Shown here piece after piece: positions 5,566 to 10,850 of a stretch of 64,000 nucleotides of DNA (the first letter of the stretch is position 1; every line of letters begins with the position of its first letter). A program made the translations under genes and the position numbers. The DNA lies in the sequence record NZ_CP049149.1; one strand, written 5' to 3'. The notes under the pieces are model-generated. The model saw nothing but the letters and a program-made list of their open reading frames with translations, did not search any database and was not told the origin of the DNA. This DNA comes from a plasmid.

Positions 5566-5654
5566 AATGAAGAGTAAGTAACAACTTACCTACTAAAGAT
5601 GGTTATGTTGTGATATAAATCTGCCATCCGATTTGACTATTCATGGAGGAAATA

Positions 5655-5978
5655 ATGTCGATCGAGATGGCAGGCGTAACGCCTGAGCAGGTTGAACGCA
5701 TCGCCGCTATTGTTGCGCGTGAAGTCGTTGGCAAATTAGGTAAAGAACTTCGGGAAGAAATTGGCCAGGAGGTCAATGATCAGCTCAAAACCTACTTTGG
5801 TGATATGACTCCAGCGCAACATAGCATCCAGCATTCCAACCTGGACAAACTTCTAAACCGGCTTGACGCGCTTTCCAGCGGGTTCTTTGGTGGCATTGTC
5901 TCAAAGATAACGTCGTTCCTGATTACCGCGCTGTTGCTGGGTCTTGCCGCTTATGGCGTTAAAAATGGACTTCAATAA
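5655..5978 (+). CDS. Putative holin (single C-terminal transmembrane segment)
   Basis: RBS ggagg 5 nt upstream of the ATG at 5655. C-terminal hydrophobic segment ITSFLITALLLGLAAYGV. Position directly upstream of the endolysin and spanin genes. Confidence 0.35.
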   Translation: MSIEMAGVTPEQVERIAAIVAREVVGKLGKELREEIGQEVNDQLKTYFGDMTPAQHSIQHSNLDKLLNRLDALSSGFFGGIVSKITSFLITALLLGLAAYGVKNGLQ

Positions 5979-5989
5979 GGAGAGCAAGG

Positions 5990-6682
5990 ATGAAAACTCC
6001 GAGAGGTATTCGCAATAACAACCCAGGCAACCTCGACCGAGGCTCGCCGTGGCAGGGTTTGGTAAACAACCATTCTGAGCCGCGTTTCTGTACGTTCAAA
6101 GACCCTGTGTGGGGAATCCGGGCGCTGGCAGTAACGCTCATCACCTATCACGACAAGCGCCGCGCCAAAGATGGCTCAAGCATCGATACGATCCGCGAAG
6201 TCATCGAGCGCTGGGCACCGCCGAACGAGAACGACACCGCTGCTTACATTCGCGAGGTCGCTAAAGCCGTTGGCGTCACCCCGGACATGGTTATCGATCT
6301 GCATGACTATGACACTCTGCGCCCGCTGGTGGAGGCAATCATTCGTCACGAGAACGGCCGCGGTCCACTAAAAACCCTGAACAGCTGGTACACATCCGAA
6401 GTCATCGAGGAAGGCCTGCGCCGTGCCGGGGTTGTTAAGGCTGTTAAGGCGGTCAAAGCCCTTCCTGTCACCAAAGAGACGGCTGGTGCCACCGTCACTG
6501 CCGGCATCGGTCTCGCGCAGCTGGCAGAGGTGATACCGCAAATCTCCGCAGCGATGGATAAAGCACAGGGCAACATCACCAGTGGAGACACGGTGCGCGT
6601 CATCTTCGGCATTGCCACCATCCTTGTGGCGGGGTTCATCGCCTGGTCGCAGGTGTGCAAATACAAGAAGGGGATAGCCTGA
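5990..6682 (+). CDS. Putative endolysin (muramidase-like) with C-terminal hydrophobic segment
   Basis: RBS aaggag. Conserved N-terminal RNNNPGNL motif. Lies between the holin and the spanins. C-terminal TM-like segment VIFGIATILVAGFIAW. Confidence 0.4.
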   Translation: MKTPRGIRNNNPGNLDRGSPWQGLVNNHSEPRFCTFKDPVWGIRALAVTLITYHDKRRAKDGSSIDTIREVIERWAPPNENDTAAYIREVAKAVGVTPDMVIDLHDYDTLRPLVEAIIRHENGRGPLKTLNSWYTSEVIEEGLRRAGVVKAVKAVKALPVTKETAGATVTAGIGLAQLAEVIPQISAAMDKAQGNITSGDTVRVIFGIATILVAGFIAWSQVCKYKKGIA

Positions 6683-6683
6683 T

Positions 6684-6935
6684 ATGTTCGGCAGCCTGTT
6701 TTTAAAGCTCAAAATTGCTCTGATTACTCTGGCTGCCGTTCTTCTGGTGCTTGTCGGCGCATACACAATGGGGGGACTCGCGGCCAGACGAGCGCTGGAA
6801 GAGAAGGCCAAGCAAGACGATAAAAAACGGCTTCAAAGCACGGTGGACGTCAAAAATGAGACTTTTAATGAAGTGCGACAAAAGGATGCTTCTGCTGTTC
6901 ATCGCGAGCTGCATGATAAGTGGCTGCGTGATTGA
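6684..6935 (+). CDS. i-spanin (Rz-like)
   Basis: ATGA start overlaps the endolysin stop. N-terminal TM (LKIALITLAAVLLVLVGA) followed by a charged periplasmic coiled-coil. Confidence 0.55.
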   Translation: MFGSLFLKLKIALITLAAVLLVLVGAYTMGGLAARRALEEKAKQDDKKRLQSTVDVKNETFNEVRQKDASAVHRELHDKWLRD

Positions 6936-7071
6936 CGCCCCGAAAACAGGGGTGTTGTTCTGCGATGGAGCAAATCCTATCTATGTCAGCAAAGAGGACT
7001 TCATGACGGAAGAAACGGAACGGGAGATCCTCTTACATAACACGATTGGCGAACGGTTGTGTAAATGGTAG
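6855..7071 (+). CDS. o-spanin (Rz1-like lipoprotein), overlapping the i-spanin gene in the +1 frame
   Basis: Lipoprotein signal with lipobox ISGC (MLLLFIASCMISGC). The ORF starts inside the i-spanin gene and extends beyond it. Confidence 0.55.
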
Positions 7072-7076
7072 TAGTA

Positions 7077-7102
7077 AATGAGCGCGTCAGCGCTCATTGT
7101 TT
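7077..7102. terminator. Bidirectional hairpin terminator between the lysis cassette and the convergent HEPN-like gene
   Basis: aatgagcgcgtcagcgctcatt: perfect 9-bp palindromic stem with T-rich flanks on both strands. Confidence 0.4.
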
Positions 7103-8298
7103 TCCATAAGGTAAGATAGTTCTTTGCTAATTGCGCGTTTGAGATATTTCATCGCTTTTATGCATAAAGCTCTATCTTGTGTGCTAATTTTGTTCATTCG
7201 GCCATGAACTAACTTAGATCTCAATTGATAGATGGCTTTAAATTCTTTTTTTATTTCGGCACGTTCTGCCATACCTTTACCAATGAGATATGCACAACGA
7301 TCCGTAAGCGTTAACGTTAGGCCAGCATCATTAGTGTTATCACCTAAAAGTGCCTCCAGCCCCATGCATATTTGCAAGAAACTCATTGTTTTATCATGGT
7401 TTATTTCTGACTGTATGCACCAGTCAATAGCGGAGACAATATTTTGAGCCTCATCTGAGGTGTCATCCAATAGTCTTGTTGCTTCTTCGAGAGCTTCTAA
7501 AGTTAAATTTCTAAGTTCATCTTCGTGCATTCCGCTGACCATCTCTAGTTCTTCCAAATACATGGCAGTAGGAATAGAAAAAGAATGTTCATCGATGCTT
7601 TGCGGATAGTCATTATTGATTATTTTCGCCCATAATTCAGTAATGTATTGTTTCCTATCAAAAATAGGCGACCAGTTTATTGTACGTTGAACTGATTTGT
7701 TGTAATTCCTCTCTATTACATTTTTTGCGCGTAAAGAGTAAATCAGTACATTAAGAACTATAGTAGCCTCCTTCATGAAGTAATCTTTTTCATAAATATT
7801 GTAATATCCGATAGAAGGTACGCAAATATTTGTTTGCGCCACTTCTGACTCACCAGACAAGGCAAATCCCATGGACGCTTTAGATTTTATCTTATGTTCA
7901 ATGGAAAATCTTTTGCAATCAGAAAAGGAAGGTAAAGAAAGATTGTTTAATGGGATGGTGATTTCATAAGAAAAAGGGATTGATAGTAAATAATTGCATG
8001 AGAAATCTACAAGATTATCTTTCTCTTTTGGTTGCAAATCTTGACAGGAGGTTTCTTCTTGGTCAAAACATCGTATGTGTTTGCCGTAATATTTTATGGA
8101 GTCGAGATAGGCAAACATTGCTGATATTTCATCGAACTGGTAACTTTTGTTTTTAGAAAGCTCCACTGCCAGTTTCTTAATATCATTACCTATATTTTTT
8201 GAAAAACAGGCGATACCATTTATCAAATCCGTGCCATCCACCAAAATGCGGATTTTATTCTTGAGGTTTTCTATTTTCCCTGGGTGATTATTCGCCAT
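7087..8298 (-). CDS. HEPN-domain-like protein (candidate abortive-infection / defence effector) in an AT-rich island
   Basis: 403 aa and about 33% GC, against about 50% for the flanking DNA. C-terminal helical region ends in YQLRSKLVHG (R-x4-HG, the HEPN RNase signature as in Abi/Apea-type HEPN). The N-terminal ~250 aa have no recognisable domain. Confidence 0.4.
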   Translation of the reverse strand: MANNHPGKIENLKNKIRILVDGTDLINGIACFSKNIGNDIKKLAVELSKNKSYQFDEISAMFAYLDSIKYYGKHIRCFDQEETSCQDLQPKEKDNLVDFSCNYLLSIPFSYEITIPLNNLSLPSFSDCKRFSIEHKIKSKASMGFALSGESEVAQTNICVPSIGYYNIYEKDYFMKEATIVLNVLIYSLRAKNVIERNYNKSVQRTINWSPIFDRKQYITELWAKIINNDYPQSIDEHSFSIPTAMYLEELEMVSGMHEDELRNLTLEALEEATRLLDDTSDEAQNIVSAIDWCIQSEINHDKTMSFLQICMGLEALLGDNTNDAGLTLTLTDRCAYLIGKGMAERAEIKKEFKAIYQLRSKLVHGRMNKISTQDRALCIKAMKYLKRAISKELSYLMENNER

Positions 8299-8436
8299 TT
8301 TTGCTCCAGCCAGCGGTTTATCTTTGTTTTTGTAAACACTTTCAGCTCTTATGTTATGCCATCCTCAGTCTACGGCAAAGCCTGTGATTAACACTTTACA
8401 CCGCAGCCGTAGGCATTTAGGCTATATCGCATATAA

Positions 8437-8487: not shown

Positions 8488-9153
8488 ATGACCAAAATCA
8501 TTGTGGTTGGCGGCACCAAAGGCGGCCCAGGCAAATCGACCGTTGCCCAGCAAATTGCGGTGTGCCTAAAAGTTAAGAAGAAAAAGAAAACGCAGGTCAC
8601 TGACATTGATATTCAGCGCACCACGACGAGCTGGTGCGAAGACCGTCGCCAAAATGAAGACCTTGACCTTATCCCCTTCGCCTACGTTCAGGATGACATC
8701 GTTAAGCACCTTAAATCGCTTCAGGGGCGCGTCGACTATGTTGTAGTGGATGCTGGTGGCTTTGACTCCGAAATCCAGCGACAAGCGATGCTGATGGCTG
8801 ATGTCATCATTATCCCTCTGCGTCCTAAGCGTCGTGATTTGAAATCGCTGCGCGACATCGACCCGATTGTCGACAATGTGCGCACTGTGAACCACAAAGT
8901 GAAGATTCGCGCGGTCATCAACCAGTGTCCGTCTCTGCCTTCACAGGTATCACGTATTCTGGCCGCCAAAGAGATTGTCGAGACATTCGGCATCGAGGCT
9001 GCGCCGGTTAACCTGTACAACCGTAACGTTTATGACGACGCGGAAGAGGCAGGTCGTTCTATATTTGAAATGACTGGCGCTGAACGCGATAAGAAGGCAG
9101 AAGCCGAGTTCGAAGAGTTTGTAGATTACATCATGAGTCTGGAGGAAGAATAA
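8488..9153 (+). CDS. parA: ParA partition ATPase (small, type Ib)
   Basis: Deviant Walker A GGTKGGPGKST. About 220 aa. Followed by a small centromere-binding-protein gene with an ATGA overlap. Confidence 0.75.
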   Translation: MTKIIVVGGTKGGPGKSTVAQQIAVCLKVKKKKKTQVTDIDIQRTTTSWCEDRRQNEDLDLIPFAYVQDDIVKHLKSLQGRVDYVVVDAGGFDSEIQRQAMLMADVIIIPLRPKRRDLKSLRDIDPIVDNVRTVNHKVKIRAVINQCPSLPSQVSRILAAKEIVETFGIEAAPVNLYNRNVYDDAEEAGRSIFEMTGAERDKKAEAEFEEFVDYIMSLEEE

Positions 9154-9512
9154 TGTCCATGAGAATGGGAGACCTTGCAAAGCGCAAAGATCCGGAAGAA
9201 CCGGTAAAAAGCAGCACCCCAATGCGCCAGCCAGTCAGACCGCAGGGGCGTCCGACTCGTGGGAAAGAGAAGATTAAGAGCCGCACAATGTCGCTGGAAG
9301 ACGAGTACTTCGATCTGCTGGAGATGATGAAGTTCATCCCTCGTTTCGAGAAATTCACCCGTTCTGACGTGATTCGTGCAGCCATTTTCCATCTGGCAGA
9401 GAAGTCACCGCAGGAAATCGAGGACATCGTGAAACTGAACGAGGCGATCACCGCTGCCGACGTCACTATGCGCACCGATGAAATTAAGCGTGAGTTGATG
9501 AAAAAAAGTTAA
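9153..9512 (+). CDS. ParG/ParB-like small centromere-binding protein (ribbon-helix-helix)
   Basis: 119 aa with a basic disordered N-terminus and a C-terminal RHH-like segment (MSLEDEYFDLLEMM...). Translationally coupled to parA. Confidence 0.4.
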   Translation: MSMRMGDLAKRKDPEEPVKSSTPMRQPVRPQGRPTRGKEKIKSRTMSLEDEYFDLLEMMKFIPRFEKFTRSDVIRAAIFHLAEKSPQEIEDIVKLNEAITAADVTMRTDEIKRELMKKS

Positions 9513-9515
9513 TTA

Positions 9516-9544
9516 CAGGGGGTGCTTTGCACCCCCTGTTTTAT
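9516..9544 (+). terminator. Rho-independent terminator
   Basis: cagggggtgctttgcaccccctgtttt. Confidence 0.55.
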
Positions 9545-9589
9545 TGTGCTGACAATTACACCAATAAGGCTAATCGAGAAATATCAACC

Positions 9590-10369
9590 ATGGATTCGAT
9601 AACTGTCATTATAACATTGTTTCTTAGTGTTCTATCCTCGTTGGTAGAGAAAATTACTGACTATTTTTCTAGCGGAGTTAGAAGAAAGGATGTAGAAAGA
9701 AAGATTAAAGAATTAGAAGAACAAAGAAATAAAGCCTTGTATTATCACATCAGAAATATAAGATCGCATTCGACTTATGAAGCACTGAATAAATCGTTAG
9801 GAAGTGAGCTTACACATAAAATTATAATTGATACCATGCTGAAGAACGATGAGGTGATTACAAAATGGCAACAGTTGGATTACCTCGTTCAAGAAGATAG
9901 TAAACTCGATAAACTAACCTACGAAGAGTTAAGAGGCTTTATTCTGATTGAGAGAACTATGCGAGAGCGGTTAGAGGCCAAAAAGAAAAACAAAAATGAG
10001 ACCGTGGTTAATTTGTTTTTATTAAGTGAAAAAAACAAAATGCTAAAAACAAAGACCATTTCAGTTCTTACCATGATCCTGAGTGCGGTTGCGGTTGCGT
10101 TTCTTGGGTTACCAATCTGGACAATGTGCATAGGATTGGTGATCTTTCTTCTGGCAGAACTGAAGGATCAGATCGTGAGTTTTCGGGTATCCCGAGGTTT
10201 CTTTGGTACTACCACATCTGAGGCTATTCAGTTAATTAAATTTATCAGAGAAAACTCAGATAAGTTCGATTCCAACAACGGTGATGGGAGACGCAGGAAG
10301 ATTCTTAATCCGGAAAGATTAAACACGAAAGGCGTAAAAGAGGCTGATGGAGGTCTGCAAAATGTTTAA
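9590..10369 (+). CDS. Membrane protein (N-terminal TM, coiled-coil, two C-terminal TMs) in AT-rich island
   Basis: Start ATG at 9590 (MDSITVIITLF...). About 37% GC. Hydrophobic segments at the N-terminus and at ISVLTMILSAVAVAFLGLPIWTMCIGLVIFLL. Confidence 0.4.
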   Translation: MDSITVIITLFLSVLSSLVEKITDYFSSGVRRKDVERKIKELEEQRNKALYYHIRNIRSHSTYEALNKSLGSELTHKIIIDTMLKNDEVITKWQQLDYLVQEDSKLDKLTYEELRGFILIERTMRERLEAKKKNKNETVVNLFLLSEKNKMLKTKTISVLTMILSAVAVAFLGLPIWTMCIGLVIFLLAELKDQIVSFRVSRGFFGTTTSEAIQLIKFIRENSDKFDSNNGDGRRRKILNPERLNTKGVKEADGGLQNV

Positions 10370-10772
10370 TGCAGATACTATATCAAAACGAGTTAGTCAG
10401 TGTCTTGATATTCTATTTTTGAGACAACCATTACGCACCGCTTTCGGTTTTCTTGTGGGTTTTATTATTTATACCTGTGTATATTCATTTCGATTGATTA
10501 TTGCGGCAAACTGGTTTGAGGTTGACACGGTTCATTACACTGCATGTTTCGTGCTTGGCATCTTGCTGGTACACGGCAGGACGCTTGTTGATGTATATCG
10601 TGGTACTGCTATTGACGAAGAAATAAATACTCTTCTTAACGCTATAAGCCGACGTACAGATTTGTCAAAAGAGCAGAAAAGAATGATGATTGCGGAGGTT
10701 CTCCAGTCGGAAATTTCTAAGTTAGGCAAGAAAGGATTAGAACAGGTTGCCCAAAGTGTAGTTGAAAAGTAG
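10362..10772 (+). CDS. Small two-TM membrane protein, translationally coupled to the preceding gene
   Basis: RBS gatggagg. Overlaps the upstream stop codon. TM segments FGFLVGFIIYTCVYSF and ACFVLGILLV. Confidence 0.4.
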   Translation: MFNADTISKRVSQCLDILFLRQPLRTAFGFLVGFIIYTCVYSFRLIIAANWFEVDTVHYTACFVLGILLVHGRTLVDVYRGTAIDEEINTLLNAISRRTDLSKEQKRMMIAEVLQSEISKLGKKGLEQVAQSVVEK

Positions 10773-10790
10773 ATTTTCGATTCATTCAAG

Positions 10791-10850
10791 GACCTGCTTC
10801 TATATATATAAATACTAAGTTACTTATTATTATTTATACGGAAGCAGGTC
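10791..10850 (+). repeat. Large hairpin (10-bp GC stem, 40-nt AT loop containing TATAAATA) followed by a T-run; one of two related elements
   Basis: gacctgcttc...tatatatataaatactaagttacttattattatttatacg...gaagcaggtc ttttt. Related copy at 62250-62306. Confidence 0.4.

Follow-up and report, generated by a model that had tools for sequence, protein, structure and literature searches.

We analysed a stretch of 64,000 nucleotides (sequence record NZ_CP049149.1; the window), an SSU5-like phage-plasmid of Cronobacter sakazakii, which carries a gene for a 403-amino-acid protein that we propose as a candidate phage-defence ribonuclease (RNase). The open reading frame (ORF) is present in the ORF list of the window at 7087-8298 on the minus strand, just as a first-pass annotation, made from the sequence without database searches, had reported, and it begins with ATG. 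As that annotation had also stated, it lies between the lysis cassette (5643-7071, plus strand) and the partition locus, convergent with the former; it is divergent from parA. The flanks match Salmonella phage SSU5, Escherichia phage Cyrano and Klebsiella phage-plasmids at 80-87%. A protein 99% identical to it, WP_175299785 of C. sakazakii plasmid pCsaCS931a, is already labelled 'HEPN domain-containing protein' in RefSeq. The GC content of the gene is 35.9% (34.4% at third codon positions), falling locally to 32.8% over 400 bp. When all 1212-bp segments of the window were compared (mean GC 50.6%, standard deviation 3.7%), the gene was found to be the lowest-GC 1.2-kb stretch in the 64 kb, approximately four standard deviations below the mean. 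It is thus an AT-rich gene in a backbone of about 50% GC, as first described, although the value of 33% GC then given for it has to be corrected to 35.9%.

Searches of Pfam, NCBIfam, PADLOC and PHROGs with the protein gave nothing significant, and nor did one-by-one library scans of 123 diverse members of its family (28 + 95) and 10 edge members. PDB sequence searches with a full-length profile and with a HEPN-only profile returned chance matches alone. The fold was recognised in the predicted structure, in which the C-terminal part of the protein forms the four-helix up-and-down bundle of the HEPN superfamily (PMC3710099): helix 1 (H1) spans residues 282-299, H2 303-318, H3 343-364 and H4 373-402, with an additional helix at 327-339 inserted between H2 and H3. 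The best structural matches (scores in brackets) were AF0298 (9.8), the HEPN protein 4nqf (9.5) and YutE (9.1), followed by HepT toxins (9.0, 8.8 and 8.1), TTHA0636, HI0074 and the sacsin HEPN domain (8.2-8.5) and AbiA (8.1), with AbiV, Las1 and Csx1 slightly lower; the PDB copy used for these matches contained no ApeA structures. The motif YQLRSKLVHG occupies residues 357-366, with R360 encoded at 7219-7221 and H365 at 7204-7206. In the model, R360 to H365 lie at the end of H3 and are followed by a loop (365-372) and then H4, a placement of Rx4H that agrees with the definition of HEPN domains in PMC3710099. The first-pass annotation had taken the motif for a HEPN RNase signature, and the structure prediction bore this out, with a HEPN fold and correctly placed arginine and histidine. 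It had also described a C-terminal helical domain ending in this motif; the motif is there, but the domain continues beyond it with the 30-residue H4.

The motif is not a chance match: of 176 family representatives, 173 have R-[SGC]-x-x-x-H-G and the other three are C-terminally truncated fragments. In an alignment of 137 sequences with a mean column identity of 21%, R360, H365 and G366 were invariant, and E315, S361, R334 and R346 were invariant or at least 90% conserved. S361, adjacent to R360, is polar but is not one of the N, D or H residues typical of HEPN domains. An acidic residue in helix 2 is typical of HEPN families, usually in the form Ex3[KR] (PMC3710099); E315 lies in H2, yet the residue four positions further on is G319 rather than K or R, and the Ex3[KR] form is absent. 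The insert between H2 and H3 consists of a low-confidence loop (319-326) and the helix 327-339, which bears the conserved residues T328, L331, D333, R334 and C335. At the level that sequence comparison and structure prediction allow, we regard both the HEPN fold and the intactness of the catalytic site as established, and the protein is, by fold and motif, a member of the HEPN superfamily; its RNase activity is putative. The coordinates of these elements, and of the neighbouring features, are collected in Table 1.

Table 1. Features of the locus, in coordinates of the window
Feature	Position	Strand	Basis
Coding sequence of the 403-amino-acid two-domain protein, stop codon included	7087..8298	-	ORF list; 99% identity to WP_175299785
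N-terminal alpha/beta domain, residues 1-255; fold-orphan, fast-evolving; putative sensor/regulatory domain	7534..8298	-	
HEPN core, residues ~282-403	7090..7455	-	
Catalytic signature R360-S-K-L-V-H365-G366 (Rx4H), C-terminal end of helix 3	7201..7221	-	sequence, conservation
E315, conserved acidic residue of helix 2 (GLEALLGD)	7354..7356	-	alignment, predicted structure
Cargo cassette, replacing other cargo between Rz1 and the parA control region	7072..8393	.	homology breakpoints
Upstream region belonging to the cassette	8299..8393	-	sequence; exchanged along with the gene
Perfect 9-bp hairpin overlapping the stop codon of the 403-amino-acid gene, between it and the convergent Rz1	7077..7098	.	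terminator-like scan
Holin	5643-5978	+	
Endolysin	5990-6682	+	
Rz	6684-6935	+	
Rz1-like lipoprotein ORF, last of the lysis cassette, left slot boundary	6751..7071	+	ORF list; SSU5 and Cyrano annotations of the homologous region
parA, right flank; slot boundary inside the parA control region	8488..9153	+	99.5% amino acid identity to WP_029590320 (MipZ/ParA)

The same conservation bears on whether the gene is functional at all. Several HEPN families are non-catalytic (PMC3710099), so that the domain here could serve as a mere binding or dimerisation module, or the gene could be a silenced, functionless remnant; its strong AT bias would favour H-NS-type silencing, and a consensus scan of 8299-8393 found no promoter at threshold, nor was a convincing sigma-70 promoter detected upstream. 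However, non-catalytic HEPN domains have lost Rx4-6H (PMC3710099), whereas the arginine, histidine, glycine and helix-2 glutamate are all invariant in this family. The ORF is intact and full length in many phyla, and in the window its ATG is preceded at a distance of 5 nt by a good Shine-Dalgarno sequence (GGAG, 8304-8307). We regard a non-catalytic or decaying gene as highly improbable.

We compared the protein with ApeA and other HEPN systems. ApeA is a protein of approximately 580 amino acids with three domains (a helical N-terminal domain, a Mid domain and a split HEPN domain with large insertions) that forms decamers, is activated through a pocket between its N-terminal and HEPN domains, and cuts tRNA anticodon loops or the genomes of RNA phages. 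Like ApeA, the candidate would act in defence as one protein, in which a non-catalytic N-terminal region packs against a HEPN RNase at the C-terminus. Unlike ApeA, as judged from the description of Ec2ApeA, it has only 403 residues, an alpha/beta N-terminal domain and a near-minimal HEPN domain. PADLOC, with its ApeA models, gave no match at E <= 10 for the query, and none to ApeA among 28 family members. The Pfam family PF18739 (Apea-like HEPN) reached E values of 0.062-0.075 in three of the 123 members, far under its gathering score, and the edge members failed as well; one of these carries the name 'Apea-like HEPN' at JGI.

Other HEPN proteins differ from the candidate in architecture. HepT of the HepT/MntA (type VII) toxin-antitoxin (TA) system, AF0298, YutE and TTHA0636 are stand-alone domains of about 120-150 residues, and HepT is controlled by an adjacent nucleotidyltransferase (MNT) antitoxin, whereas the 403-amino-acid protein has no MNT neighbour and carries a fused N-terminal domain of 255 residues instead. 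Type III TA and AbiF-like HEPN systems have a tandem repeat array or a structured RNA beside the toxin gene, which is absent from the cassette. DARNA/PD-T7-3, DS-11, DS-38, DS-29, Tha and AbiV, which are often found on prophages or mobile islands, also combine a sensor or regulatory domain with a HEPN RNase in one polypeptide. Their sequences are nonetheless unrelated by inspection of those published, none of their PADLOC models matched, and the architectures diverge: in DARNA the HEPN domain is N-terminal, DS-11 has a CBS domain and DS-38 has zinc fingers. Because no model matched and no architecture agreed, the protein is not a demonstrable member of ApeA or of any other named HEPN family or defence system, in line with the first-pass annotation, which could assign the architecture to no named system. 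It resembles the single-protein HEPN defences in its logic, but with a different, fold-orphan N-terminal domain.

A member of the family has been noticed before. In Table S4 of the DefensePredictor study (PMC13092281), a 375-amino-acid Collimonas protein is listed as 'Predicted novel defense gene', with ApeA as its best remote HHblits match (probability 91.3, 13% coverage). We found this protein to be a full-length member of the family (hhalign probability 99.9 over 361 columns). As a computational prediction, a defence role for the family is not unprecedented. The HEPN systems validated in that study (DS-11, DS-28, DS-29, DS-33 and DS-38) were considered as possible representatives of the family and rejected, as their sequences and architectures differ; the DefensePredictor clone 'APE1' was likewise rejected, 'APE1' being a protein of 176 amino acids. 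SSU5-group phage-plasmids are known carriers of assorted defence systems (10.1101/2025.09.12.675607).

We then determined how the gene is distributed among related elements. In PLSDB, 734 plasmids have the lysis and parA flanks, and only 13 of these, from Cronobacter, Enterobacter and Klebsiella, carry a relative of the 403-amino-acid protein, in every case in the same slot and the same orientation. Most of the remaining plasmids have a GNAT toxin gene and a DUF1778 antitoxin gene in the slot, phage Cyrano has KacT with its antitoxin, and SSU5 has two genes, SSU5_031 and SSU5_032 (L005:3179-4335); the 403-amino-acid gene is absent from both phages. A core gene would be present in most members of the SSU5-like group, and this gene is not: it is accessory, as first supposed. 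Homology of the backbone to relatives with other cargo ends at 7071, 7068 or 7052 (7071 is the end of the Rz1 stop codon) and resumes at 8388-8394, so the cassette extends from approximately 7072 to 8393 and includes about 95 bp of its own upstream region. Compared with an allelic variant, identity falls from 97-100% to 60-88% between about 6900 and 8400. The GC content of the gene is 10-15 points lower than that of the surrounding DNA, not only in Cronobacter but also in Enterobacter, Klebsiella, E. coli, Trinickia and a metagenomic Burkholderiales-like contig. The hairpin in which it ends is likely to act as a bidirectional terminator. For SSU5_031 and SSU5_032, neither Pfam nor PADLOC gave a match; these two genes add to the unexplored cargo of the hotspot.

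The usual occupants of the slot suggest another function for the gene. Like the KacAT/TacAT-type pairs of GNAT toxin and DUF1778 antitoxin, it is in the Rz1-parA slot in the same orientation, as exchangeable and presumptively toxic cargo, and it adjoins the partition operon; HepT proteins, which are HEPN toxins of TA systems, are among its best structural matches. It might accordingly be a toxin for plasmid maintenance or for competition between elements that replaces the TA pair, rather than a defence against lytic phages. KacAT and TacAT are two-gene type II systems with an acetyltransferase toxin, unrelated to the 403-amino-acid protein in sequence or fold. Against a maintenance function, post-segregational killing requires a labile antidote, for which we searched. 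All-against-all clustering of ORFs from 34 loci found no protein besides the HEPN protein common to more than three of them, the three-locus clusters being phage-plasmid backbone genes, and no MNT antitoxin gene was adjacent in any of the 34. Tandem repeats were absent from the cassette, Rfam gave no match at E <= 1, and the only repeats were short ones at chance level. An antitoxin hidden as a small ORF, a repeat array or an RNA is thus unsupported, and the cassette is a single-gene unit. Most members of the family are, moreover, chromosomal or prophage-borne rather than plasmid-borne. We consider a maintenance toxin unlikely, bearing in mind that TA pairs in such slots are often defensive and that this explanation overlaps in part with a role in defence.

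A profile search of 1.84 billion representative sequences showed the extent of the family, with 3,710 clusters (at 50% identity) at E <= 1e-3, of which 516 reached E <= 1e-30. Full-length proteins of about 380-430 amino acids made up most of the top matches listed. In a scan of species-representative genomes, members were found in Gamma-, Beta- and Deltaproteobacteria, Nitrospirota, Nitrospinota, Bacteroidota, Bdellovibrionota and Acidobacteriota. The E. coli homolog (63 member sequences) lies in a small chromosomal islet (L007/L008:5983-11806), the Trinickia homolog in a prophage, and a distant homolog in a P2-like prophage remnant on metagenomic contigs (L011-L014), between the portal gene and an Ogr/Delta gene. 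The 140 neighbours within 3 kb of family members included five phage integrases and two transposases, and several matched models of type I, III and IV restriction components, PbeA, reverse transcriptase (RT) and PDC-S02, with housekeeping genes among them too. As counts without a background rate, these are only suggestive of a mobile or defence-like neighbourhood. Two of the contexts have features of their own. The E. coli islet, inserted between shikimate/major facilitator superfamily genes and an AI-2E transporter gene, contains an Aca2/YdiL-family gene, split integrase fragments, an insertion sequence (rve) and a PIN_12 protein. In the P2-like remnant a BrnT/BrnA toxin-antitoxin pair is found about 1.5 kb from the homolog, a placement that resembles a known P2 defence hotspot.

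These contexts also bear on whether the enzyme could act for the phage itself, either as an RNase for host RNA shut-off or RNA processing in its own lytic cycle, or as an anti-defence enzyme that degrades cyclic-oligonucleotide signals, like some HEPN domains of Csm6/Csx1. The lysis and structural genes are transcribed in the opposite direction, with the hairpin between them and this gene, which is missing from 98% of related elements, SSU5 included, and so is dispensable for the life cycle. Homologs are found in chromosomal islets that are not phages, and no CARF or other cyclic oligoadenylate-binding domain was detected. A benefit to the phage's own cycle of either kind therefore seems very unlikely.

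The N-terminal domain (residues 1-255) was left without assignment by the first-pass annotation, and has stayed so: it matched no fold or family. A profile search with this domain alone retrieved just four proteins, all full-length members of the family, within the limited sensitivity set by the word prefilter, and there is thus no evidence of its reuse with other effectors. The HEPN-only profile retrieved mostly fragments of the protein's own family. Alleles of the gene were compared domain by domain. Between the window and plasmid pCsaC105731a, the proteins of the flanks hardly differ (holin and endolysin 100%, ParA 99.5% identity), whereas the 403-amino-acid protein is 68.8% identical overall, 61% over its N-terminal domain and 85% over its HEPN domain. 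In the DNA, identity is 97-100% in the flanks, 82-88% over the HEPN part (7100-7500) and 60-76% over the N-terminal domain with the upstream region (7500-8400). Identity thus changes in a step within the gene at about 7500 (residue ~256), coinciding with the domain boundary. The Enterobacter allele shows the same tendency (45% in the N-terminal domain versus 77% in the HEPN domain), as does the Klebsiella allele (21% versus 49%), and in all the slot contains a series of proteins 99%, 69%, 55% and 30% identical, of which the 55% allele is that of pMB2617_2. The step suggests domain-level recombination or very different evolutionary rates. An exchanged gene in an arms race, whose recognition module varies while its effector is conserved, would be expected to show such a pattern, although the pattern does not prove this reading.

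Taken together, we think it fairly probable that the gene encodes a stand-alone abortive-infection or exclusion HEPN RNase carried as cargo by the phage-plasmid. In this model it would serve in immunity or exclusion, be exchanged horizontally, and be expressed from the upstream region of its own cassette, in the part of the genome devoted to plasmid maintenance. The C-terminal part would be a minimal HEPN ribonuclease: helix 3 ends with R360 and H365, helix 2 contributes E315, and the helix inserted between H2 and H3 bears the additional conserved pair D333-R334. Its composite active site would form by dimerisation, as in other HEPN enzymes, whose RNase activity is independent of metals. The N-terminal domain would pack on the HEPN domain and keep it inactive until a cue from infection by a competing phage, possibly a phage protein, a nucleic acid or a small nucleotide, is received. 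The activated RNase would then cleave host and/or phage RNA, tRNA anticodon loops being the likeliest target by analogy with ApeA, PrrC and DARNA; translation would halt and the infection abort. On infection by a competing phage, the host would thus survive, or the clonal population would be spared, to the benefit of the phage-plasmid. The first-pass annotation had put the gene forward as a candidate defence system, and that status stands; we infer the anti-phage and RNase activities and the sensor role of the N-terminal domain, and the proposed dimerisation and RNA target are likewise putative.

A more far-reaching proposal, which we offer tentatively and think may well not hold, is that the N-terminal domain is a new kind of infection sensor in a widespread family of single-protein immune sensors, and evolves and recombines independently of the HEPN effector. 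Independent evolution is invoked here because the allele mosaic breaks at the domain boundary. The cue would then be phage-specific and distinct from that of ApeA, DARNA or Tha, and alleles on otherwise identical phage-plasmids would differ in their phage-exclusion spectra. The natural allele series makes sensor specificity directly testable. A HEPN defence candidate as such is not surprising to a specialist, but the family is large: if active, it would add its 3,710 clusters, spread over Proteobacteria, Nitrospirota, Bacteroidota and Acidobacteriota and with a putative sensor domain that has no structural precedent, to the single-protein HEPN defences.

Several observations were made on the surrounding element. 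Plasmid pCsaCS931a (NZ_CP027108.1), which carries the 99%-identical gene, is only 51.6 kb long, about half the normal size of SSU5-like elements (100-110 kb), and is probably a deletion derivative that has retained parA and the 403-amino-acid gene. A second AT-rich island (GC 0.37-0.39) is found in the window at 9511-10780, directly downstream of the parA/parB-like operon, with two plus-strand ORFs, 9527-10369 (280 amino acids) and 10347-10772 (141 amino acids, hydrophobic), neither of which matched Pfam or PADLOC. Backbone homology stops at about 9510 and resumes at about 10781-10791, and this gap therefore indicates a second cargo-swap slot, so that the partition operon is flanked by two. 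If the 403-amino-acid protein is active, it would show that SSU5-like phage-plasmids exchange genes for immunity or toxins at two fixed positions, one on each side of parAB. These elements are common in clinical Enterobacteriaceae, and near-identical ones could then differ in the phages that their host resists, which would be relevant to phage therapy and to the persistence of the elements. Upstream of the holin gene, SSU5 has Cor and outer-membrane-protein genes and the window has the end of a tail-fibre gene, whereas in the C. malonaticus plasmid NZ_CP141994.1, a close relative, the holin gene is directly preceded by a gene for an sbmA-like peptide-antibiotic transporter (L044:147-1340); this may be a third variable position.
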